Source: an uncultured bacterium (lineage in GTDB: Bacteria > Babelota > Babeliae > Babelales > Babelaceae). From it: a stretch of DNA of 64,000 bases. Each line of letters starts with the position of its first letter. Positions within the stretch are counted from its first letter, which is position 1. Location of the stretch: NCBI GenBank assembly GCA_963848965.1, contig CAWKFG010000004.1, positions 224,001 through 288,000 of the forward strand, in the 5' to 3' direction. Position numbers and translations under genes: made by a program. The notes beneath the pieces were generated by a model that worked only from the letters and a program-made list of their open reading frames with translations, was not told the DNA's origin and made no database searches. This document shows positions 3,295 through 60,360 of this stretch, in pieces.

Positions 3295-4740
3295 CTAATC
3301 ATAATTTTGCGGATGCATAGTATGCCATGGTGTCGCCTGTTCGTAGGCATAGGCAGCTTGATATAACTGACCTTCTGACAAATCTGGCCCCACTAACTGG
3401 AACCCTATAGGAAGCATACTTTTAGTAAACCCACATGGAACACTTAATGCAGGAATACCTGCTAAATTAATAGGACCTGTAAAATAATCCTGAAGATCCA
3501 TCTCTATACTATTACCTTCATAGGCGCCAAACTTAAATGCTGGTATAGGAGCTCCTGGCATAAACAGCAGATCTACCTCTTTAAATGCTCTCATAAACTC
3601 ATCACGTATAAGACCTTGAACAATCTTAGCACTATTATAAAATTGATCTGCATGCCCTACTGATAATACATAATTACCAATTAAAATACGTGACTTTACT
3701 TCTAAACCAAATCCTTCATAACGAGTATTTGTATACATCTGGTTTAGTGTCTTACTCTCTTTACTTCTAAGGCCATAACGTACTCCGTCAAATCGTGCAA
3801 GATTAGATGCTGCTTCTGCACGACTCACCATAAAATAGGCAGCAGTTCCATGGTCCATCATAGGTAAAGTAAGACGTTTAATACGAGCACCTAATTTTTC
3901 AAAAGTACGTAGTGCTTCATTCAAACCAGTATACACTTCTTCATCAAATCCTTGAGCTTCAAGAGCATTATCTATAACTCCTAACGTAAACCCTTCTTTT
4001 AACTTTCCTGTTAAATACTTTGTATAATCTTGTGATACAACCTGTAGGCAACTTGAATCTCGATCATCTTTTCCAGCAATAAAAGACAGAATAAGTGCAT
4101 TATCATAGACATTACGTGTCAGCGGTCCTATCTGATCTAAAGAAGAAGCATATGCTATAAGACCATAACGAGAAACACGACCATATGTTGGTTTTAATCC
4201 TACAATTCCACAAAATGTCGCTGGTTGTCGTATAGATCCTCCCGTATCTGAACCTAATGCCCAAGGTACTAACCCTGCTGCTACAGCAGCTGCAGAACCA
4301 CTACTCGATCCTCCCGGAACTCTACTTGTATCCCACGGGTTTTTTGTAAGTTGAAATGCAGAAGCCTCAGAAGAGCTGCCCATACCAAACTCATCCATAT
4401 TTGCTCTTCCAATGAGCGGTGCTCCAGAGGCTTTAAGCCTTTTTATTGTAGTAGCATCATACGGTGCATTATAGTTTTCTAAAATCTTTGATGCACATGA
4501 GGTAACGCGTCCTTGCTGACATATGTTATCTTTTATAAGCCCTGGAATACCACGTAATGGTCCATCACCTGTTTTTTCCATAATAGATGATTGATCAAAA
4601 ATTTCTAAAGCAGATCCTAAAGTTGTATCATACTTTTTAAACCGCTCACCATAATAGGCGATAAGCTCTTGTGAAGTTATTTCTTTATCTTCAATTTTTT
4701 TTTGCAATGTTTTTATTGAAGCAAATGCTAGTTCTTTCAT
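3295..4740 (-). CDS. gatA: Asp/Glu-tRNA amidotransferase subunit A, copy 2
   Basis: [24 protein letters not shown] and [16 protein letters not shown] motifs. Confidence 0.93.
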
Positions 4741-4761: not shown

Positions 4762-6207
4762 TTATTTGTAATTTTGTGGATGCATAGTATGCCATGGTGT
4801 TGCCTGTTCATAGGCATATGCCGCTTGAAACAACTGACCTTCTGATAAATCTGGTCCCATAAGCTGGAAACCTATAGGAAGCATACTTTTAGTAAATCCA
4901 CAAGGAACACTTAATGCAGGAGTTCCCGTTAAGTTGCTTGGAGAAGTAAAATAGTCCTGAAGATCCATCTCTATACTCTCGAGCCCAATTTCTCCAAATT
5001 TAAATGCGGCAATAGGGGTAACCGGACCAAATAAAAGATCAACTTCTTTAAACGCTTTATTAAGCTCATCTCGCATAAGACCTTGTACAATCTTAGCACT
5101 ATTATAAAATTGATCTGCATGTCCTACTGATAACGCATAATTACCGATTAAGATACGCGATTTTACTAAAAATCCAAATCCTTCACCTCGAGTGTTTGTA
5201 TACATTTCGTTAAGAGTCTCACTCTTTTTACTTCTATGCCCATAACGAACTCCGTCAAATCGTGCAAGATTAGACGCAGCTTCTGCACGACTTACAAGAA
5301 AGTATGTTGCAGCACCATGGTCCATCATAGGTAAGGTAAGACGCTTAATACGAGCACCTAGTTTTTCAAAGGTACGTAATGCTTCATTCAAAGCAGCATA
5401 CACCTCTTCATTAAACCCTTGAGCTTCAAGAGCATTATCTATAACTCCTAACGTAAATCCTTCTTTTAACTTTCCTGTTAAATGCTTTGTATAATCTTGT
5501 GGCTCAACAGGTAAACTACTTGAATCATGCACGTCTTTTCCTGCCATTACTGAAAGAATAAGTGCATTATCATAAACTTCACGTGTAAGCACTCCTATTT
5601 GATCTAAAGAAGAAGCATATGCTATAAGACCATAACGAGAGACAAGTCCATATGTTGGCTTTAGTCCTACAATTCCGCAAAATGCAGCCGGTTGTCGTAC
5701 TGAACCTCCTGTTTCTGTGCCTAATGCCCAGGGCACTAGTCCGGCAGCTACAGCAGCTGCAGAGCCACTACTTGATCCTCCTGGAACTCTACTTGTGTCC
5801 CACGGGTTTTTTGTAAGTTGAAATGCAGACGTTTCACCAGAGCTGCCCATAGCAAATTCGTCCATATTTGCTCTTCCAAGAATCGGAGCTCCTGCTTTTT
5901 TAAGCCTTTGTATAACAGTAGCATCATAAGGTGCATTATAACGTTCTAAAATCTTTGATGCACAAGATGCATTACGTCCCTGCTGACAGATATTATCTTT
6001 TATAAGCCCTGGAATACCATTGAGTGTTCCTGGTTGCATACGCTCTGTAATTGATTCAAGATCAAAAATCTGTAAGGCTGCATCGAGGTTTTTATTATGC
6101 TGCAGAAAGCGCTCTCTATAAAAAGAGAGTAACTCAGCTGGTTGTATCTCTTTACTTTCTACTTTTTTTTGTAACGTTCTTATTGAAGCAAATGAAAGTT
6201 CGTTCAT
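4762..6207 (-). CDS. gatA: Asp/Glu-tRNA amidotransferase subunit A, copy 1
   Basis: Same amidase signature (GTETGGSVRQPA); overlaps the gatC stop. Confidence 0.95.
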   Translation of the reverse strand: MNELSFASIRTLQKKVESKEIQPAELLSFYRERFLQHNKNLDAALQIFDLESITERMQPGTLNGIPGLIKDNICQQGRNASCASKILERYNAPYDATVIQRLKKAGAPILGRANMDEFAMGSSGETSAFQLTKNPWDTSRVPGGSSSGSAAAVAAGLVPWALGTETGGSVRQPAAFCGIVGLKPTYGLVSRYGLIAYASSLDQIGVLTREVYDNALILSVMAGKDVHDSSSLPVEPQDYTKHLTGKLKEGFTLGVIDNALEAQGFNEEVYAALNEALRTFEKLGARIKRLTLPMMDHGAATYFLVSRAEAASNLARFDGVRYGHRSKKSETLNEMYTNTRGEGFGFLVKSRILIGNYALSVGHADQFYNSAKIVQGLMRDELNKAFKEVDLLFGPVTPIAAFKFGEIGLESIEMDLQDYFTSPSNLTGTPALSVPCGFTKSMLPIGFQLMGPDLSEGQLFQAAYAYEQATPWHTMHPQNYK

Positions 6208-49377: not shown

Positions 49378-49746
49378 ATGGCCTCCTCATCAGTAAGCAC
49401 TATAAAAAGAGCTCAGAAAGAATCACTTCTCTTTCGAAAAATTTCTCAGCTTTTTGCCCAAACAGCTCTTGATGATACACGTCTTCAAGAGATCTGTATA
49501 AACCGTGTCAAACTCTCTCCTGATAAAGGAGTCTGTACTGTTTATTTTTATACTACAGAAGGAGAAGCTCGTTTTCAAGAACTTCTTCCTATTTTAGTAC
49601 TTTACAAGCCTTCATTAAGAAAAGCGCTTGCCTCAAGCATTAAATCACGTTATACTCCTGAGCTTGTTTTTGCATTTGATAAGAACTTTGAAAAACAATG
49701 CCGTCTTGAAAACATTCTTGAAAACATAAAAACAGAAAACGAATGA
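49378..49746 (+). CDS. rbfA: Ribosome-binding factor A
   Basis: VKLSPD..CTVYF, RYTPELVF.FD. Confidence 0.9.
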   Translation: MASSSVSTIKRAQKESLLFRKISQLFAQTALDDTRLQEICINRVKLSPDKGVCTVYFYTTEGEARFQELLPILVLYKPSLRKALASSIKSRYTPELVFAFDKNFEKQCRLENILENIKTENE

Positions 49747-50492
49747 TCTTTCTTTTGTTGTCATTTCTTCTCTTTTTATGCTGGGGCTCCTTCCTCAACG
49801 TTGTAGGATATCGCATTATTCACGGATATAGCCTTGTTCTTCCTCGCTCGTTCTGTCCAAGTTGTCATACTACTATTAAGTGGTATGACCTTATCCCTTT
49901 TTTCTCGTGGTTTATTTTACGAGGAAAGTGTAGAGCTTGTAAAACACAGATATCTCCTTTATATCCGCTTATAGAGCTTCTTACTGCAGTTGTACTAACG
50001 GGGCTCATTGTTTTTATTGAACCACGATATTGGATCTCGTATGGTATCTTTTTTTCAGCACTCATAGTCACCATAAGAACAGATGCAGAAACTATGCTTA
50101 TTGCTCGTTCTATGACCTTAGGACTAGTGCCTGTTGCCCTTGCATTAAGCGCATTTGGATTACTTTCTCTTTCACTACTTGAAAGTATAGGTGGTGCCCT
50201 TTTTGGTTATGGTATCTTGTGGAGTATTGCACAATTGTTTTATCTTCTAAGAAAGCAAGAGGGTATGGGCGAAGGAGATTTTGACTTATTAAGTATGATT
50301 GGCGCATTTACAGGTATTTTTGGATCCTGGATAACATTGCTTATTGGGGCTTTCCTAGGTACTCTAGCAGGTATACTTATCTTAGCACAAGGAGCTGATC
50401 GCTCTACAAAGATAGCCTTTGGACCCTGGCTTGCACTTGGCGGAATTATCTATACATTTATACAAGAATGGTTATATAACTTTTTACTCTAA
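49743..50492 (+). CDS. pilD: Type IV prepilin peptidase (A24)
   Basis: GSFLNVV, RSFCPSC, LRGKCRAC, YPLIE, MGEGD, FGPWL. Confidence 0.93.
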   Translation: MIFLLLSFLLFLCWGSFLNVVGYRIIHGYSLVLPRSFCPSCHTTIKWYDLIPFFSWFILRGKCRACKTQISPLYPLIELLTAVVLTGLIVFIEPRYWISYGIFFSALIVTIRTDAETMLIARSMTLGLVPVALALSAFGLLSLSLLESIGGALFGYGILWSIAQLFYLLRKQEGMGEGDFDLLSMIGAFTGIFGSWITLLIGAFLGTLAGILILAQGADRSTKIAFGPWLALGGIIYTFIQEWLYNFLL

Positions 50493-50858: not shown

Positions 50859-51320
50859 CTACATAAGATCATCTTTTACAATCTTAATAACATTATCTTG
50901 ATCGATAGAAAGTATATCAGGCTCTCCATCACCATCAATGTCTCCAGCTGCATAAGCTGTAAAGCCGTCAGAAGTTATGTGAGCACCTTGTAATGCAGAA
51001 GCTGGCGTTTTAAGTTGTCCAACAAAGTGATTGTGCCCTGCTGCACCACTAAAGCCATAGGTATAATTGTAATTTCCCTCAGGCTTCCAACTAAGTCCCT
51101 GTGCACCAAAAAGATTCGTTGTATAGTGGCCAAACTCTGCAAAATATGCCTTTTGTGCTAATGCAAGTGACCGCAGAACAACATATGCTTCTGCTCGTTT
51201 TGCCTTTGCAACAAGCTTCATAAGGCTCGGTGTAACAATAACTGATAAGCAAGCAATAATTGCAACTACAATCATAAGTTCAATAAGAGAAAATCCCCTA
51301 CGCTTACAAAAGCTTTTCAC
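50859..51320 (-). CDS. Type IV pilin-like protein
   Basis: Class III signal KRRG|FSLIELMIVVAII; AKRAEA; DIDGDG. Confidence 0.9.
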   Translation of the reverse strand: MKSFCKRRGFSLIELMIVVAIIACLSVIVTPSLMKLVAKAKRAEAYVVLRSLALAQKAYFAEFGHYTTNLFGAQGLSWKPEGNYNYTYGFSGAAGHNHFVGQLKTPASALQGAHITSDGFTAYAAGDIDGDGEPDILSIDQDNVIKIVKDDLM

Positions 51321-53027: not shown

Positions 53028-53279
53028 ATGTACGAAATAGTAATCTCGTTACTATTTATCTTGCTAGGCTGCATTCTAGGCTTTATTAATGGACTTTCTC
53101 TGAGCTATCAGCAGGAGAAAGTCCCGCCTTTTTTATCCAGTCTTTTTTCCCTTATACGACTCTCTCTTATTGCAGCTCTCTTCTTTTATCTGTTGCGCTT
53201 GAACACAATACACTTTATACTTCTTCTTATAAGCTTTACCGGAACTTTTTGGGCAACGATTATACGACTTGTCCGTTAA
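53028..53279 (+). CDS. ATP synthase accessory subunit (AtpI/AtpR-like)
   Basis: Small 3-TM protein with an SLIRL motif immediately upstream of atpB. Confidence 0.6.
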   Translation: MYEIVISLLFILLGCILGFINGLSLSYQQEKVPPFLSSLFSLIRLSLIAALFFYLLRLNTIHFILLLISFTGTFWATIIRLVR

Positions 53280-53295
53280 CAAAAAGGTAGTATTT

Positions 53296-54072
53296 ATGGA
53301 AGGTTCTCACCTGTTTGAACAAGAAACGCTATGGTACCCCTTAGCTTTTTTAGGCATTACAAGTCCTCGTACTGCCGTCAACCTTACTACGGTCATGAAT
53401 ACCTGGGTTGCACTTGGCGTTATAGCCCTACTTATTTATGTAGGACGACGCTTTCTTAAAAAAGATAATTCTCTTGGACAGTATTTAGTTTTATCTTTTG
53501 TTCGCAGCTTTATCCAAATGATTGAGCAATCTACAGGAACATTCACCTATCGCTACTTCGCTTTTATTACTTCATTATTTCTCTTTATTATTTGCTGTAA
53601 CTGGGTAGCCCTTATCCCTACTGTAGAAGAACCTACTAAAGACCTTAATACTACTCTCTCACTAGGAATTATCGCATTTCTTTATATTCAGAAAGAGATG
53701 ATTAAAATACATGGTCTTAAAACCTATCTCAAAGACTACTTTGCACCAGTTAATATCTTCTTTCCCTTTAATATAATTGCAGGACTCATTATGCTTCCTT
53801 TAAAAGTACTTGGAGAAGTAGCATCAGTTATTTCTATTTCTTTCCGTCTCTTTGGTAATATTTTTGGAGGAGCAATCATTACCACTATCTTTCAAAAAGG
53901 AGTGTCTGGTTCAGTTATCTTAAACCTTGTAGGAACTCTTTTTGGTATAAATTTGATACTTATTGGCTTCTTTATCCTTTTTGAAGGATTTTTACAAGCA
54001 TTTGTCTTTTCTATACTTTCACTTACAAATATTGCAATGGCAGTTCAAATCGAAGAGCATGAGGAGCACTAA
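53296..54072 (+). CDS. atpB: F0 ATP synthase subunit a
   Basis: PTKDLNTTL, SISFRLFGN (conserved Arg), EGFLQAFVF. Confidence 0.95.
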   Translation: MEGSHLFEQETLWYPLAFLGITSPRTAVNLTTVMNTWVALGVIALLIYVGRRFLKKDNSLGQYLVLSFVRSFIQMIEQSTGTFTYRYFAFITSLFLFIICCNWVALIPTVEEPTKDLNTTLSLGIIAFLYIQKEMIKIHGLKTYLKDYFAPVNIFFPFNIIAGLIMLPLKVLGEVASVISISFRLFGNIFGGAIITTIFQKGVSGSVILNLVGTLFGINLILIGFFILFEGFLQAFVFSILSLTNIAMAVQIEEHEEH

Positions 54073-55031
54073 TGGCACTTTCTCCATCATTTATTCACCA
54101 TTCTGCAGTAGCGTTAAGCACAGCTATTACTGCGCTTGGTGTGAGCATTGGGCAAGGAATTACTAGTAAGGCAGCCTTTGATGCCATAGATCGACAGCCT
54201 ACGTCTGCAACAGATATTAGTAGAGCTACGCTTTTATCACTTGCTATTGTAGAAACAGGTGCTATTTTAGGCCTTTTAGTGTCATTTCTTCTTTTTTTTC
54301 AGCCAGTAGACGAGCTTCATAAAGCAATTGCTCAGTTGGGTATGGCTCTCTCTACTGCACTGCCCGGTCTCGTTATTGGTATTGCTGCCGCATTACCTGC
54401 ACGAGAGGCACTCATCTCCATAGCACGGCAACCTTTTTTAGGCAAAAAGATCATGAACTTTATGCTCCTTACACAATCTCTTATCCAAACTCCTATGATC
54501 TTTGGTTTTATTATAGCGCTTATTATTCGTACCCGTATAGATGCTATTACAACAGTTGCCCAAGCATTTGTTCTTCTTTCAAGTGGTCTGTCTATAGGTA
54601 TTGGCTGCATAGGGCCTGCAGCTGGTGTAGGCCTGTTTGCAAAAACAGCTTGTCGTAATATTGGAGTTAATCGAGCTGCTTATAACAAGCTTTTTACTTT
54701 TACATTCATTAGCCAAGCTATCATAGAAACACCCGTCATCTTTGCTGCAATAATTTCATTTTTTCTTACCAATAAAGCAACTACACCTATGAGCAATCCT
54801 TTACTAGGAGGTACTCATATGTTTTTTGCAATTACTATGGGTCTTGGAACACTAGGTGCTGGTATAAGCTCTGGAAAAAGCGCAGCAGCCGCATGTAATC
54901 AAATAGCCCTTAATCCTCAAAGCTATAATATGCTTTCTCGTTCAAGTATGATGGCCCAAGGACTTATTGATACGTGTGCTGTCTATGCCTTTATTATAGC
55001 ATTGTGGCTCATACTGCTACCTCTTACCTAG
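54072..55031 (+). CDS. atpE: F0 ATP synthase subunit c, four fused hairpins
   Basis: Four ~80-aa repeats with GxGxG-like helices and RQP/RQP/VNR/LNP loops; E61, Q139, E219, D300. Confidence 0.9.
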   Translation: MALSPSFIHHSAVALSTAITALGVSIGQGITSKAAFDAIDRQPTSATDISRATLLSLAIVETGAILGLLVSFLLFFQPVDELHKAIAQLGMALSTALPGLVIGIAAALPAREALISIARQPFLGKKIMNFMLLTQSLIQTPMIFGFIIALIIRTRIDAITTVAQAFVLLSSGLSIGIGCIGPAAGVGLFAKTACRNIGVNRAAYNKLFTFTFISQAIIETPVIFAAIISFFLTNKATTPMSNPLLGGTHMFFAITMGLGTLGAGISSGKSAAAACNQIALNPQSYNMLSRSSMMAQGLIDTCAVYAFIIALWLILLPLT

Positions 55032-55150: not shown

Positions 55151-57271
55151 ATGAAAATAAAAATCATTATAATAAGCACTTTTTTTCTCTTTTCGCTTGT
55201 AGCTATGGAACCACAGCCAAATCCCATCACTTCTAAAGCAACAAGCATTAATCACGCAAATACCTCTTTGACTATGCTTCTTGTTCATCATATAGCACAG
55301 CAGCTTGCATCATTCATATTACATGAGAAAGCCCGAACATTTGTTAAACCGGTACCTTTTTTAGATAGTAAAGCAAGCAGTACTAATGAGAACTTTCAAG
55401 AGCAGCTGAATAAGATAAGAAATATTTATCCTGAACTTTATAATAAAATTCGTCTTATGCTTTCACTTTATATAATTATAAGTAAAGCAACAAAAGACGA
55501 GAAACATGCTCTCCTTTTAACACTCTGGCAAGATAAAAGCAGTCGCTTTATACAGTTACTCATACATGAACTTCTTTCTCATACTTCTTTACAAGAGATA
55601 ACAGAACTTTTTCCATTAGCGCATACCATCGCACCCATACAACCTCCTTTTGCACAAGATAAACTCTCTCTTATGCATGTAGCTTCAATGCTTGATGATG
55701 CTTCTGCTGTTGAGTGCTTACTTTCATTTAATAGCACATCTTATGATAGAACTTCGGTGACAGAAGACACACCATGCCATTATGCAGCCCGCTATAAAAG
55801 CACTACAGTATTTTCTTCCTTGACAACTATTCAGATGACTACAAAAGCTAATAAACAAGGAGTTTACCCACTTACACAAGCTCTTGTAAACAATAATAAA
55901 GAAGGCGCTCTGTTTCTTATGAATCTTCCTGAATTTAAAACAGATCAAGCCCTTATTGACAATGCTTTAGAACATCTTCTGAAGTATGGCAATAATCATG
56001 AAATAGCACGGCTCTTTTCTCAAGAACTTAAAAAAACTCCATTTTATAAAACCCTACACTCGTGCTTAAAATTTTTTCTTGCTATAGCAGCCCATGCTAA
56101 TGATCTTTTTGCTTATCCTTCAAAGGATTCACAAAAGCCGCATGATAAACAAATACCCTCGCTCTACAAATTTGCTCTACAACATGTTAATTTTCGCGAT
56201 CCTACATGTGGATTATGCCCACTCCATATAGCAGCTGCATTTAATAATCTAAAAGCTGCAGAATTTTTAGTATCACATGGAGCTCATTTAGAAGCAGAAA
56301 CGTCTCAACATTTTTTTTCATTTGTCTATCAAGCAACACCATTACTTATAGCCGCTCGAAAAGGTCATTTTAAAATGGCTCACTATTTGCTAACTCAGCG
56401 CAAAGCACATACATGTTCCTCTTCTGGCATAAGCGTTCTTCATTGTGCAGCAATGAGCACAAATTTAAAGCTTATCAGATCTCTTCTTAACTATAATAAA
56501 CAACTAAAAGATATACAGTATCAAGGCGCTACGCCACTTCATATAGCAGTACTTACAGAAAATGTGCCCCTTGTACAATTATTTCTAGAGCATACCTTTG
56601 ATAAAGAGACTACAACAGATACAGGTCTTACTGCTCTTGCAATGGCGCTTCAATTTAATGAACATCCAACTATCACCCAAATGTTGCTAGAAAGCGGTGC
56701 ACTCATTCCTGAGCTCATTTTTGAAGAATCGCCACTTTGCTGTGCAGTTACTAAGAATTGGTTACCTATTGTTAAACTTCTCGTTCATCGAGGCATTGCA
56801 GTAAATAAAGTTAATCTTCTAGGCCTTACTCCCCTAGCAATTGCCGCACAAAATCGAAGTAAAGAAATTTTTGATTTCCTGCTCTTACATGATCAAACTA
56901 CAGATCTTTTACAGACTGCTCTTGAAAAAGAAGATACAAATATACTTTCTTTCTTACTTGATTACAAACTCACTAGTGAAAACGTTAATTTTCTGTGCAG
57001 AGCCATTACTCTACAGAAACAAGCAATTGCTAATCTTCTCATTGACAGGTATTCACACTTACTGGTATTAATGAATGAACAGGGTGAGACCCCGTTGCAT
57101 ACTGCAGTCTTAAGCAAAAACTATACAGTATTAGAGCGCCTTATAGCACAGCCATGCTTAATAAGTCTTCATAATACAAGAGAACAAACTCCCTTAGACC
57201 TTGCTCATGGTTTAAACGATGATAAAAGCATTACATTATTAAGTACCGCAGCTAATAAGTCATGTACTTAA
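55151..57271 (+). CDS. Large secreted ankyrin-repeat protein
   Basis: Many TPLH/TPLL ankyrin repeats; signal peptide. Confidence 0.92.
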   Translation: MKIKIIIISTFFLFSLVAMEPQPNPITSKATSINHANTSLTMLLVHHIAQQLASFILHEKARTFVKPVPFLDSKASSTNENFQEQLNKIRNIYPELYNKIRLMLSLYIIISKATKDEKHALLLTLWQDKSSRFIQLLIHELLSHTSLQEITELFPLAHTIAPIQPPFAQDKLSLMHVASMLDDASAVECLLSFNSTSYDRTSVTEDTPCHYAARYKSTTVFSSLTTIQMTTKANKQGVYPLTQALVNNNKEGALFLMNLPEFKTDQALIDNALEHLLKYGNNHEIARLFSQELKKTPFYKTLHSCLKFFLAIAAHANDLFAYPSKDSQKPHDKQIPSLYKFALQHVNFRDPTCGLCPLHIAAAFNNLKAAEFLVSHGAHLEAETSQHFFSFVYQATPLLIAARKGHFKMAHYLLTQRKAHTCSSSGISVLHCAAMSTNLKLIRSLLNYNKQLKDIQYQGATPLHIAVLTENVPLVQLFLEHTFDKETTTDTGLTALAMALQFNEHPTITQMLLESGALIPELIFEESPLCCAVTKNWLPIVKLLVHRGIAVNKVNLLGLTPLAIAAQNRSKEIFDFLLLHDQTTDLLQTALEKEDTNILSFLLDYKLTSENVNFLCRAITLQKQAIANLLIDRYSHLLVLMNEQGETPLHTAVLSKNYTVLERLIAQPCLISLHNTREQTPLDLAHGLNDDKSITLLSTAANKSCT

Positions 57272-57355: not shown

Positions 57356-58816
57356 ATGAACTTTGCGTACCTTATTTCTTTTATTTCATACTTTGCCTTC
57401 TTTTTAGGCTTAAGTATTTATTTTTATAGGAAGAACACTAATGCAAGCTCTTTTATTATAGGCAATCGATCAATGAACTACTGGGTTACTGCTATCTCTG
57501 CACAAGCAAGCGATATGAGTGACTGGTTGTTTATGGGATTTCCTGGCCTTATTTATGCTTTTGGACTCTTTAATGTGTGGGTAGCTCTTGGGCTTATTGT
57601 ATTTATGTTTTTAAATTGGCATTTTATTGCACCTCGCTTAAGAACTGCAACTGAAGAGTACCAAAGTTTAACATTAGCATCATTTTTTGAACATCGATTT
57701 AAAGATACTTCAGGCACACTACGGTTACTCACTGTTTTCTTTACCTTGTTCTTTATAAGCTTTTATATTGCTGCAGAATTAATTGGCTTAGGACGCCTCT
57801 TTGAGACAACCTTTGGAATTAACTATAATCTTGGTATTGCAATAAGCATAGCACTTGTCGTGCTTAATATTCTTATTGGAGGATTTGTAGCGCTTGCATG
57901 GAGCGACTTATTTAGAGGACTTTTTCTTCTTCTTATGATTATACTAGTACCAGTAGTAGCACTTATGCATGTAAGCACTACTCAATCAATTACTCAATAC
58001 CTTTCTTTTTCTACGTTTACCTCAAAACTTGTTCCTGATTACTCATGGACAACGATAAGTAGTATTCTTCTTCTAGCAACAGGATGGGGCCTTGGTTATT
58101 TTGGCTCTCCGCATATTCTTATTAATTTTATGGGTATCGAAGATCCTAAAAAAATTCATAAAGCTAAATATATTGGTATTACCTGGCAGACGCTCGTACT
58201 GAGCGCAGCAACTATTGTAGGGCTCGTAGGGATGCTGTTTTTTGCTCAACCACTTGCTAATCGAGAATTAGTCTTTGTCGAAATGGTTAAAAGCCTCTTT
58301 AATCCACTGCTAGCAGGATTCATTTTATGTGCAATTTTAGCTGCAACTATGTCTGTTATGACTGCACAAATTCTTGCTACCGCATCTATTGTTTCAGAAG
58401 ATTTCTTTAAACGTATAATTACTACTCGTCTTAATGCACACCACTCATTGTGGCTCTTACGAGCTTGTGTTATAGTTATTCCACTGCTCTCTTATCTTAT
58501 TAGCTATAACAATACACATGCCGTAAATGATTTGGTAAGTTATGCTTGGTCTGGTCTTGGTCTCGCCTTTGCTCCTATAGTGATCACTGCGCTTTATTTT
58601 AAACGAGTAAATAACTATGGCGCTATCGCTGGCATGGCTTTTGGCGGAATCATGGGTACCGTATGGCCCTCTCTTAACACAGGTATTATGCCACTGCTTC
58701 CAGGCTTTATAGCTTCAACTATACTTATCTTTACCGTTTCAGCAGTCACAGAGAGGAATAAAGAAAAGATCTCTACCTTTGCACAAAAGATGAATAGCTA
58801 TTTTAAAAAGGCTTAA
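57356..58816 (+). CDS. putP: Sodium/proline symporter
   Basis: SAQASDMSDWLFMGFPG, APRLR, GWGLGYFGSPHIL, AILAATMS, YAWSGLG. Confidence 0.92.
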   Translation: MNFAYLISFISYFAFFLGLSIYFYRKNTNASSFIIGNRSMNYWVTAISAQASDMSDWLFMGFPGLIYAFGLFNVWVALGLIVFMFLNWHFIAPRLRTATEEYQSLTLASFFEHRFKDTSGTLRLLTVFFTLFFISFYIAAELIGLGRLFETTFGINYNLGIAISIALVVLNILIGGFVALAWSDLFRGLFLLLMIILVPVVALMHVSTTQSITQYLSFSTFTSKLVPDYSWTTISSILLLATGWGLGYFGSPHILINFMGIEDPKKIHKAKYIGITWQTLVLSAATIVGLVGMLFFAQPLANRELVFVEMVKSLFNPLLAGFILCAILAATMSVMTAQILATASIVSEDFFKRIITTRLNAHHSLWLLRACVIVIPLLSYLISYNNTHAVNDLVSYAWSGLGLAFAPIVITALYFKRVNNYGAIAGMAFGGIMGTVWPSLNTGIMPLLPGFIASTILIFTVSAVTERNKEKISTFAQKMNSYFKKA

Positions 58817-58935
58817 AAGGTGGCCATTTGCTCTTTTTAGAGACTTGCTCTATAATTTCTTATTGAAACATTTTTTGAGGTACTATACCTCTAGCACTAC
58901 ATTCAGATATGAAATATTTTAAAGCAAGGATAGTT

Positions 58936-60360
58936 ATGTTAAAACAAATACTCGTTAGTATATCATTGGTATTGTTACCATCTTTAGCATCTGCTATGCA
59001 GAATGATCACCTATTCCAGCTTATACATAGAGGAGATATAGAATCACTAAGAAGGTCATTGGCAACTGGCATCTTTATAAATGCACAAAATAAGTATGGA
59101 AATACTGTTCTTGCAGAAGCTGTTTTACAAGGCAATAAGGATATCGTTAGTCTCTTTATTAATGCTCGAGCTCCTGTTAACGTTCAGGACAATATGGGCA
59201 TGACACCCCTTATGAATGCAGTAATCCAAGACAGAGAAGATCTTGTAACCATGCTCTTAAGAGCAGATGCAAATCCTAATCTTGTTGATCGTAATGGAAC
59301 ATGCGCTCTTAGTTTTGCAGCCCGCTTAGGGTTAGAAACTATAGTAAGAATCCTTATTGAGTACGGAGCTGATGTCACTAGAGCAGACAACAAGAAAGAA
59401 ACGCCTATTGTACATGCAGCTAAACAAAATCAGCTAGATATTGTAGCTCTACTAGCTCTTGTAGGATCCCCCTTAAAAGGACTTGAACTTTATCCAAAAG
59501 CTCTTGCAACTGCTCAACAAATTTTAGAACAATCACAGCCCTCTAAAGAAGAGCAAAATAAACAAAAAGGTTTAAAATTTATTTATGGTTTAGAAGCACA
59601 GCGAGGAAGACGTCCAAGCATGGAAGATGCTCACGTAGCTCAAGTACCTTTTGCTGATAACCCTGCGATGGCCTTTTTTGGAATTTTTGATGGCCATGGC
59701 GGTGCAGATGTAGCTCACTACTGCGCTAAAAATCTTATGCCCGCATTACAACAATGCCCACTGTTCTCGTCAAATATGAGAGCTGCTCTTATACAAGCTA
59801 TAGAGAAAACTAATAGCGACCTCGGTAAATCTGATCTTAAAGATGCAGCAGAGTTTATGGGGAGCACTGCTATTGTAGCAGTTATAAAAGATAATGATCT
59901 TTTTATAGCTAATGTAGGCGATTCACGAGCTATTTTATCAAGAGGCGGAAAAGCAGTTGCTCTTTCACAAGATCAAAATCCAACTCGTCCAGATGAATTT
60001 GAACGTATAAAAAATGCTGGTGGCTTTGTACGCGATAACAGAGTCGGCGGAACACTTGCAGTATCTCGAGCCTTTGGCGACTTTGTACTTAAATCAGTAG
60101 GACTTATTGCTACTCCTGAAATTGAGCATACTGAAATACAGCCTGAAGATGAGTTTTTAATTCTTACCTGTGACGGTATTTTTGAGAGTAATATTTTGAC
60201 TCGTCAAAATGCAGTTGATATTGTAAGAGGTGTATTAGCGAAATACAAAGATGATCCTCTTGCTCCTACTAAAGCAGCACAAGAGCTTGTTATTACCGCT
60301 TATAACAGAAAAAGTGGCGATAACTTGAGCGCACTTGTTGTAGTATTTAAAAGAAGTTAA
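58936..60360 (+). CDS. Secreted ankyrin-repeat + PP2C (PPM) Ser/Thr phosphatase fusion
   Basis: Signal peptide, about 4 ankyrin repeats, RRPSMEDAH, DGHGG, ANVGDSR, LAVSRAFGD, CDG, GDN. Confidence 0.92.
   Translation: MLKQILVSISLVLLPSLASAMQNDHLFQLIHRGDIESLRRSLATGIFINAQNKYGNTVLAEAVLQGNKDIVSLFINARAPVNVQDNMGMTPLMNAVIQDREDLVTMLLRADANPNLVDRNGTCALSFAARLGLETIVRILIEYGADVTRADNKKETPIVHAAKQNQLDIVALLALVGSPLKGLELYPKALATAQQILEQSQPSKEEQNKQKGLKFIYGLEAQRGRRPSMEDAHVAQVPFADNPAMAFFGIFDGHGGADVAHYCAKNLMPALQQCPLFSSNMRAALIQAIEKTNSDLGKSDLKDAAEFMGSTAIVAVIKDNDLFIANVGDSRAILSRGGKAVALSQDQNPTRPDEFERIKNAGGFVRDNRVGGTLAVSRAFGDFVLKSVGLIATPEIEHTEIQPEDEFLILTCDGIFESNILTRQNAVDIVRGVLAKYKDDPLAPTKAAQELVITAYNRKSGDNLSALVVVFKRS

Follow-up and report, generated by a model that had tools for sequence, protein, structure and literature searches.

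The atpB-c4 locus

We describe here a gene, c4, encoding an F-type ATP synthase c subunit of four fused helical hairpins with unequal ion sites. It lies in a 64,000-nucleotide stretch of DNA (the window; positions 224,001 to 288,000 of contig CAWKFG010000004.1 in GenBank assembly GCA_963848965.1, or C4:224001-288000 in our contig numbering) from a bacterium that two NCBI labels place in the phylum Candidatus Dependentiae (TM6); the genome amounts to 1.73 Mb in 5 contigs and is 88.7% complete. The gene occupies 54072..55031 on the plus strand of the window, opens with ATG, and has no internal stop codons, giving one open frame of 319 amino acid residues with 8 transmembrane helices. Pfam PF00137 (ATP-synt_C) matches the protein in 4 stretches, with a whole-protein E value of 5e-37 and a score of 126 bits (cut-off 24). 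A carboxylate stands in the middle of the outer helix in three of the four hairpins (E61, E219, and D300), and a glutamine (Q139) takes this position in hairpin 2. An earlier note made from the letters alone had described a 319-residue c subunit of four hairpins, down to single residues (Q28, E61, T62, Q139, E219, D300) and loops (RQP41, RQP119, VNR199, LNP280), and by the frame, the four PF00137 matches, and the sequence itself that description was exact.

The same note's assignment to the F-type also stands. The best NCBIfam match of c4 is F0F1 subunit C (NF009998, E value 9.2e-32), with the best V-type K model far lower at 2e-14; c4 reaches no NCBIfam cut-off for a single-hairpin equivalog, but NCBIfam groups it with F-type c, as it does the separate single-hairpin c subunit of the same genome, which we call c1. 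Specifically, c4 has i) two-helix hairpins with a short polar loop, ii) a sequence closer to F-type than to V/A-type subunits, and iii) a gene position beside atpB. These NCBIfam scores and the gene context rule out a V-type or N-type origin. For the N-ATPase (the alternate F1F0 enzyme, atpDCQRBEFAG), the alt_F1F0_F0_C model gives 85 bits (cut-off 130.85) and altF1_A gives 88.5 (cut-off 302.1); AtpQ/AtpR and a compact operon beginning with beta and epsilon would be expected, whereas the order here is small protein, a, c4, with beta and epsilon about 395 kb away.

An AlphaFold2 model of c4, built on an alignment of 124 rows, consists of eight long helices forming four hairpins (mean predicted local distance difference test score, pLDDT, 97.6; predicted template modelling score, pTM, 0.93). 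With helices taken from this model, and all on the plus strand, hairpin 1 (residues 5-75, 54084..54296) has its site at E61 (codon 54252..54254) with Q28 on the inner helix and the loop RQP; hairpin 2 (residues 82-158, 54315..54545) has Q139 (codon 54486..54488) in place of a carboxylate and the loop RQPF; hairpin 3 (residues 162-235, 54555..54776) has E219 (codon 54726..54728) in a non-canonical pocket and the loop VNR; and hairpin 4 (residues 243-315, 54798..55016) has D300 (codon 54969..54971), an outer helix whose T301, C302, and Y305 resemble c1, and the loop LNP. The four hairpins are only 24-27% identical to each other, and 23-34% identical to c1; the low mutual identity implies that the fusion is old, and excludes a recent tandem repeat or an assembly artefact. 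An artefact, or a set of separate tandem c genes read as one, is equally at odds with the intact frame in this genome and with matches across the phylum that span nearly the whole query, and the internal stop codons by which the earlier note might have been undone are absent.

The gene for Fo subunit a, atpB (53269..54072, plus strand, 267 residues; PF00119 E value 1.5e-35, NCBIfam F0F1 subunit A 4e-35), lies directly upstream. It carries the arginine motif FRLFGN, and PF00119 matches nothing else in the genome. The c4 frame opens one base inside the stop codon of atpB, in the sequence TAATG, and a Shine-Dalgarno-like GAGGAG hexamer (54061..54066, plus strand) sits within the end of atpB, 5 nucleotides before the c4 ATG. 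The arrangement is general: atpB is directly upstream of c4 in 43/43 related loci, stop and start overlap in 34 of the 54 loci where this could be measured, and the gap is at most 33 nucleotides in all 54.

Ion sites at the edges and in the interior of c4

In the Ilyobacter tartaricus ring, as given in the part of PMC2359735 available to us, Na+ is bound by Glu65 and Gln32 of one subunit, and the ligands contributed by its neighbour are Ser66, the carbonyl of Val63, Tyr70, and, through a water molecule, Thr67; in the fused NtpK of E. hirae, the same part of that source has the second set of ligands supplied by the N-terminal hairpin. We propose that c4 follows this plan, each ion site being built by two adjacent hairpins, one of which would contribute position 65 as the carboxylate and position 32 as the ligand on the inner helix, while the preceding hairpin would give the backbone carbonyl of position 63, the hydroxyls of 66 and 67, and Tyr70. 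The earlier note had read a Na+ signature within hairpin 1; the residues are present as it said, but the reading was too simple if sites are shared between two neighbouring hairpins as that accessible part of PMC2359735 describes.

When positions are numbered by aligning the c4 hairpins with c1 (position 32 and positions 63-70), c1 has Q32 and IVETSAIY; hairpin 1 has Q28 and IVETGAIL; hairpin 2 has A106 (serine in most relatives) and LIQTPMIF; hairpin 3 has V186 (leucine, glutamine, methionine, or isoleucine in relatives) and IIETPVIF; and hairpin 4 has S267 and LIDTCAVY. In this alignment the side offered to the next hairpin is degenerate in hairpins 1-3 and canonical in hairpin 4. The interior of c4 lacks Na+ ligands, with proline at position 67 and phenylalanine, leucine, or methionine at position 70; the outer helix of hairpin 2, for instance, presents T140, P141, and F144 to the E219 site of hairpin 3. 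Judged from these residues, the outer edges of c4 are canonical and its interior sites degenerate, and site 2, with Q139 and no carboxylate, should be unable to carry an ion.

A single-hairpin c subunit and one set of F1Fo genes

A PF00137 search of the whole genome returns the four hairpins of c4 and one further gene (match at C4:458908-459099), and no V/A-type genes were seen. The further gene, c1 (C4:458896-459141, on the minus strand in its extracted locus), lies 180 kb from c4 and encodes a canonical single-hairpin c of 82 residues with the full Na+ motif Q32, E65, T66, S67, and Y70. It heads an operon that continues with b' (124 residues), b (157 residues), delta (178 residues), and alpha (499 residues) at C4:456-459 kb; beta and epsilon are at C4:671-673 kb, about 395 kb from c4, and gamma is on contig 1 at 46.6 kb. 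The F1Fo genes are thus dispersed over four places (small protein-a-c4; c1-b'-b-delta-alpha; beta-epsilon; and gamma), and the genome carries one each of a, alpha, beta, gamma, and epsilon, but two c-type genes.

Downstream of c1, delta is present in 29/29 loci, and b' follows c1 in 26/29. Among the 29 Dependentiae c1 sequences Q32 and E65 are invariant and Y70 is present in at least 90%. The c1 loop reads GKYPE instead of the usual RQPE, with G44 and K45 invariant and Y46, P47, and E48 each in at least 90% of the same sequences; the RQP motif remains only in hairpins 1 and 2 of c4.

The earlier note had supposed a ring built solely of c4, and had allowed that a canonical atpE elsewhere, together with poor conservation of c4, would speak against its view. 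The genome search does find such an atpE, namely c1, which is kept in 254/261 genomes of the phylum and is more conserved than c4; given this separate subunit, a ring with a multiple of four hairpins and three of every four sites live is an unlikely geometry. The second part of the proviso fell out the other way, since c4 is itself conserved in 254/261.

Distribution and conservation in Dependentiae

Our phylum sample comprises 261 genomes, all in one order, and two database names for the protein read "hypothetical protein [Candidatus Dependentiae bacterium]". The c4 query finds a match in 259/261 genomes, with a best E value of at most 8e-18, a level that single hairpins do not reach, in 254/261; the remaining matches are single hairpins in genomes 53-78% complete. 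Among the 150 matches listed, all span from about residues 1-18 to residues 313-319 of the query in open frames of 311-354 residues, and 2 contain one stop codon. The c1 query has a match at an E value of at most 1.7e-14 in 254/261 genomes. Both genes are found in 249/261, and 11 of the 12 genomes without one or both are 53-86% complete. In four genomes (G115, which is 95% complete, G144, G148, and G202) PF00137 detects only the four hairpins of c4, whereas G212 does have a separate c. Compared like for like in 19 genomes, c1 sequences share a mean pairwise identity of 0.65 and c4 sequences one of 0.49. Within c4, conservation is highest in the RQPF loop of hairpin 2, with a mean pairwise identity of 0.50 versus 0.25-0.34 for the other loops.

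The individual sites are less uniform than the fusion. The pattern E/Q/E/D on which the earlier note had dwelt is well kept in the clade of the window, where E61 is found in 159 of the 161 closer relatives, Q139 in 152, E219 in 161, and D300 in 153, but it does not extend across the phylum: among 124 representatives of 50%-identity clusters, which are 28-60% identical to the query c4, the four-site patterns are EQED in 67, EQEE in 20, EEEE in 19, EEED in 3, EMED in 3, and others in 12. Position 61 is glutamate or aspartate in 124/124 and position 28 glutamine in 95/124; position 139 is glutamine in 95/124 and glutamate in 23/124 (19 EEEE, 3 EEED, and 1 DESG), so that all four carboxylates are present in the 22 EEEE and EEED representatives; E219 is kept in 119/124; position 300 is aspartate in 76 and glutamate in 45; and P121, R119, and Y305 are found in 124/124, 118/124, and 105/124, respectively. 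In a survey of 57 loci from 17 of 21 GTDB families, the pattern is mostly EQED in f1, f4, f8, f9, f10, f15, f17, and f21 (43/48 loci, the exceptions being one EEED in f1, and three EQEE and one DQED in f21), EEEE in f6, f7, f11, and f16, EEEQ in f3, EQGE in f2 and f12, EGQE in f14, and EMED in f5. Other lineages have thus lost other interior sites, and hairpin 1 always retains its carboxylate. By these comparisons the four-hairpin fusion is an invariant feature, and an ion-blind hairpin 2 appears to be the state of one large clade.

We also constructed a tree of individual hairpins, splitting 58 c4 rows (one of which, P0001, duplicates L011) and adding 29 c1 sequences and 18 hairpins of other fused c proteins. 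Hairpins 1, 2, 3, and 4 and c1 form clean clades with support of 0.997, 0.991, 0.998, 0.505, and 0.997, respectively, and no hairpin of the fused c proteins from other phyla described below falls inside any Dependentiae hairpin clade. This topology points to a single fusion event before the sampled radiation. Support at the deep nodes is 0.00-0.85, and the fusion may share an origin with the multi-hairpin c of sulfate reducers or may have arisen separately. The c4 gene itself is real and old.

Fused c subunits in Acetobacterium woodii and other phyla

Both by sequence and by fold, the closest solved relative of c4 is a fused ring subunit. The best PDB match is chain 4bem_J, the A. woodii c1 subunit (atpE1; phmmer E value 2.3e-11), followed by A. 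woodii c2; Foldseek also puts 4bem_J first (E value 2.2e-4, TM 0.76 on the target, root-mean-square deviation 2.0 over 156 columns), and then E. hirae NtpK (PDB 2BL2; E value 1.1e-3, TM 0.81 on the target; phmmer to 2bl2_A, E value 9.9e-4). Every solved chain covers at most two of the four c4 hairpins.

The details given here for A. woodii c1 come from an alignment with the PDB sequence and from the part of PMC9171764 available to us, according to which the A. woodii ring consists of nine single-hairpin c and one V-type c having only one Na+ site. That same part of the source bears out the precedents cited in the earlier note, namely the fused c1 of A. woodii and the archaeal subunits of 2, 3, or 13 hairpins. 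Several features are shared: A. woodii c1, like c4, is an F-type fused multi-hairpin c encoded directly after subunit a; it is accompanied by a single-hairpin c with the Na+ motif; one of its hairpins has glutamine for the ion-binding glutamate; and it reads ETSGIF and then QTTGIY, so that, as in c4, the outer edges are canonical and the helix facing the dead site is degenerate. There are also differences. A. woodii c1 has two hairpins (4 helices) where c4 has four (8 helices); three carboxylates remain in c4, and the pockets of two of these lack Na+ ligands; the c4 gene stands apart from the single c and the remaining operon; A. woodii synthesises ATP, whereas the Dependentiae host is an obligate energy parasite in which the enzyme is probably a pump; and hybrid assembly is proven in A. 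woodii, whereas for Dependentiae we infer it from the comparisons below.

The V/A-type proteolipids (NtpK, and the archaeal c with 2, 3, or 13 hairpins) likewise have fused hairpins with fewer ion sites per hairpin, and in NtpK the site uses the outer helix of the preceding hairpin (PMC2359735, in the part available); unlike them, however, c4 is F-type in sequence and has F-type neighbour genes (a here; b', b, and delta elsewhere).

Fused c proteins are not confined to these examples. The nearest ESM Atlas clusters of c4 are multi-hairpin c proteins of other phyla (P0193, P0241, P0268, and P0269), and a search with representatives also returned fused F-like c proteins of 320-411 residues with 4-5 hairpins. 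Relatives of one of these proteins are encoded in eight loci of metagenome-assembled genomes of Desulfobacterales, Thermodesulfobacteriota, Victivallales, and Ca. Tritonobacter (L100-L107), which carry subunit a, a fused c of 2-5 hairpins, and a single c, in that order in 8/8 cases. Their fused c share with c4 the Q-T-P..F motif of ion-blind hairpins and a canonical last hairpin. In the 7 loci whose fused c retains glutamate (L100-L105 and L107), the S-T..Y side occurs only where the next site is glutamate, and a T-P..F or S-A..F side where the next site is glutamine. These proteins mostly have glutamine in their interior hairpins, whereas Dependentiae keep E219 and D/E300; as exceptions, the two-hairpin L107 keeps glutamate in both, and the three-hairpin Victivallales L106 reads Ser, Gln, Gly, without glutamate or aspartate. 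In the single c of these loci position 32 is glutamate and the loop reads, for instance, GKNPE or GRNPK, whereas Dependentiae c1 has Q32 and GKYPE. By analogy, the Dependentiae layout looks like such an operon cut between its two c genes. Two very long c arrays were also seen (P0217, 968 residues, and P0264, 1139 residues; about 12 and 14 hairpins by eye, 6 and 7 HMMER stretches), one of them unusually rich in tryptophan.

A probable hybrid ring of c4 and c1, and the alternatives

We think it most likely, with moderate confidence, that c4 and c1 co-assemble in one hybrid ring of the organism's single F1Fo ATPase, because i) there is one enzyme set but two c genes, which co-occur in 249/261 genomes; ii) c1 is more constrained than c4 (0.65 versus 0.49); and iii) a fused c is paired with a single c both in A. 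woodii and in 8/8 loci of other phyla. The ring would contain c4 and copies of c1, as the A. woodii ring contains one fused c and nine single c, except that the fused subunit would have four hairpins instead of two; read by analogy, this extends the A. woodii c1 principle from two to four hairpins, and it is the best reading we can offer. Hairpin 1 would present Q28 and E61 to the hairpin before it, and hairpin 4 would present T301, C302, and Y305 to the hairpin after it, so that the edges of c4 could complete normal Na+ sites with flanking c1. Sites 3 and 4 would keep E219 and D300 without Na+ ligands, having V186 and S267 at position 32 and receiving Thr-Pro..Phe from the preceding helix. 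Such a c4 would break the symmetry of the ring. A low copy number of c4 would agree with its translational coupling to the single-copy a.

A structural model of the complex bears on this reading. With c4 (alignment of 124 rows) and two copies of c1 (29 rows), the model scores an ipSAE of 0.61, whereas the highest value among 3 controls is 0.00. A score of 0.61 is attained by 116 of the 157 solved complexes and by 2 of the 215 mismatched pairs. Contacts agree to at least 94% between the three runs, and the partner pLDDT is at least 75. One c1 copy docks on hairpin 4, where I299, C302, and Y305 face c1 Q32, residues 28-29, and residues 68-72; the other docks on hairpin 1, where c1 residues 63-64, 66-68, and 70-71 face c4 residues 21-30 and E61. 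The modelled docking has the geometry expected if sites are shared between neighbours, with both edges of c4 free to receive them.

We wish to stress that several observations weigh against this interpretation. Both the membership of the two subunits in one ring and their ratio are things we infer, and Na+ coupling itself is argued solely from a sequence motif. The complex model used custom alignments and two partner copies, unlike the calibration of the tool, and its pass may stem from likeness to solved c-rings. The genes for c4 and c1 are never adjacent, being at least 23 kb apart in the 14 genomes where they were compared on one contig, and given this distance co-regulation is not evident. 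G115 (95% complete, 7 contigs) has c4 but no separate single-hairpin c by PF00137, and its congener G114 has one; the gene may truly have been lost in G115, or it may fall in a gap of the assembly. Another c4 would fit against the canonical edges of c4 as well as c1 would, the apparent grammar of the sites permitting c4-c4 contacts; indeed, loss of the position 28 ligand goes with loss of the position 301 hydroxyl in 6/23 versus 12/101 representatives (Fisher p = 0.10, kin not corrected), a weak and non-significant trend that leans toward such contacts. The retention of E219 (119/124) and D/E300 (121/124) in ligand-poor pockets departs from the grammar of the other-phyla loci. Finally, a lower ion count cannot be why the fusion persists throughout the phylum, because 19/124 representatives hold all four carboxylates.

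A ring of c4 alone, with three copies for example giving 12 hairpins and 9 carboxylates, and with c1 outside the ring, would fit a gene translationally coupled to the sole a subunit. The T301, C302, Y305 side and the Q28, E61 side could together form a normal site, the weak tendency of both sides to decay together (p = 0.10) is in its favour, and G115 is a nearly complete genome with c4 and no detected c1. But c1 is found in 254/261 genomes, has a Na+ motif in which Q32/E65 do not vary, evolves at a slower rate than c4, and heads the operon of the stator and F1 genes; just one a and one F1 set are available for it to work with; and fused c is paired with single c in A. woodii, the only characterised case, and in the 8/8 loci from other phyla. 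We therefore regard a c4-only ring as unlikely. Two alternative rings sharing one a and one F1, a c1-only ring moving more ions per ATP and a c4-containing or c4-only ring moving fewer, could provide a gear change between life stages, such as those spent outside the host and within it. The infective phase of Dependentiae is distinct from the replicative one, and the location of the two c genes in different transcription units at least 23 kb apart would permit separate control. Nevertheless atpB, which any ring requires, is coupled to c4, which is probably made whenever a is; we know of no precedent for such an exchange of rings, and we consider it distinctly improbable. A look through sequencing runs turned up no RNA run for this stretch, and one soil-metagenome DNA run with a small share of its words, which speaks neither for nor against it.

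Even less likely, in our estimation very much so, is that c4 is not a rotor part at all, but serves on the stator side or in assembly, or forms a separate membrane channel that descends from c. The loss of the RQP loop in hairpins 3 and 4, the non-canonical interior sites, and an evolution faster than that of c1 would be understandable in a protein freed from the ring. Such a protein would hardly be expected, however, to keep the mid-membrane carboxylate in hairpin 1 (124/124), hairpin 3 (119/124), and hairpin 4 (121/124), an almost invariant RQPF loop in hairpin 2, and edges with the residues that complete c1 sites; its fold and its nearest solved relative are those of a ring subunit, and its gene stands where A. 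woodii-type operons have the fused ring subunit. A further idea, which we think rather unlikely, is that c4 acts as a keystone present once per rotor. With the RQPF loop of its hairpin 2, it would provide the docking site for the foot of gamma/epsilon and determine both the register and the size of the ring, and E219 and D300 would carry H+, so that two ion species would move per turn. We raise it because conservation within c4 peaks at the RQPF loop of the ion-blind hairpin 2, and c1 is overall the more conserved protein. The four hairpins of c4 would then form one stalk platform, and the many copies of c1 could have given up the stalk-binding RQP loop (GKYPE phylum-wide).

Apparent energy parasitism and the possible gearing of the rotor

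The genome encodes three ATP/ADP translocases of the TLC family, and no match to complex I/Mrp-type (PF00361), Nqr/Rnf (PF03116), cytochrome bd (PF01654), or membrane pyrophosphatase (PF03030) families was found in its 88.7%-complete sequence. The organism thus looks like an energy parasite, as the earlier note had guessed. In the portions of PMC4776705 available to us, Yeoh et al. describe seven TM6 genomes without an electron transport chain or tricarboxylic acid cycle, and propose that the ATP synthase hydrolyses ATP and keeps the membrane energised; they report a membrane pyrophosphatase in all seven, whereas PF03030 was not found in the present genome at 88.7% completeness.

An ATP-driven Na+ pump would be the most economical reading of the enzyme, because c1 has the Na+ motif, no primary pump was found, and a Na+:solute symporter is encoded nearby. 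The enzyme would probably hydrolyse imported ATP, pump Na+, and so energise the membrane. The number of ion carriers in a c-ring sets the ions moved per ATP, and hence the gearing for making ATP or for pumping. In a hybrid ring c4 would take away at least one carrier per turn, which would mean fewer ions per ATP and a steeper gradient, but the drop in ions per ATP would be smaller than in a ring of c4 alone.

Among bacterial F-type enzymes, only that of A. woodii has been characterised with a fused and partly ion-blind c, which has two hairpins; in Dependentiae, obligate intracellular parasites that import host ATP, a four-hairpin c is kept beside a normal one across the phylum. Within our coverage, which leaves out most subscription journals, we found no published description of a bacterial F-type c with three or more hairpins, of the fused c subunits in the loci from other phyla, or of a Dependentiae c subunit, and the term "ATP synthase" gave zero hits for the Chromulinavorax paper. 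The variation of the sites between lineages (EEEE, EQED, EQEE, EQGE, EEEQ) offers a ready comparative series, which bears on whether a fused c serves re-gearing, the fixing of ring size, or stalk docking; on whether carboxylates without Na+ ligands function in a Na+ ring; and on how far a rotor tolerates gaps. Genes of the c4 type are at present labelled "hypothetical protein" or plain "subunit c", and reconstructions of Dependentiae metabolism built on a standard proton ATP synthase may be wrong in both the ion and the gear.

Neighbouring genes

Upstream of atpB, at the usual position of AtpI, lies a gene for a small membrane protein of 83 residues (53028..53279, plus strand). Its match to PF03899 (ATP-synt_I) is weak (E value 0.034, 15 bits, under the 25.1 cut-off) and NCBIfam gives no meaningful match, but tblastn finds the protein upstream of a in 25/43 related loci; a Mur-ligase-like gene is upstream in 38/43. 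Downstream of c4 the next gene encodes an ankyrin-repeat protein and not atpF. There are two such ankyrin-repeat proteins (55151..57271 and 58909..60360), the second fused to a PP2C phosphatase domain, and these eukaryote-like domains fit an intracellular lifestyle. Between them, two genes downstream of c4, is the gene of the sodium:solute symporter family (57356..58816; PF00474, E value 1.9e-77), whose proximity would suit a membrane economy based on Na+.

A prepilin peptidase (A24; 49743..50492) and a protein that resembles type IV pilins and has an N-terminal methylation motif (50859..51320) are encoded a short way upstream of the ATPase genes. Farther away are two tandem paralogues of the amidase family, 481 residues each, at 3295..4740 and 4762..6207 (PF01425, E value about 1e-129 each).

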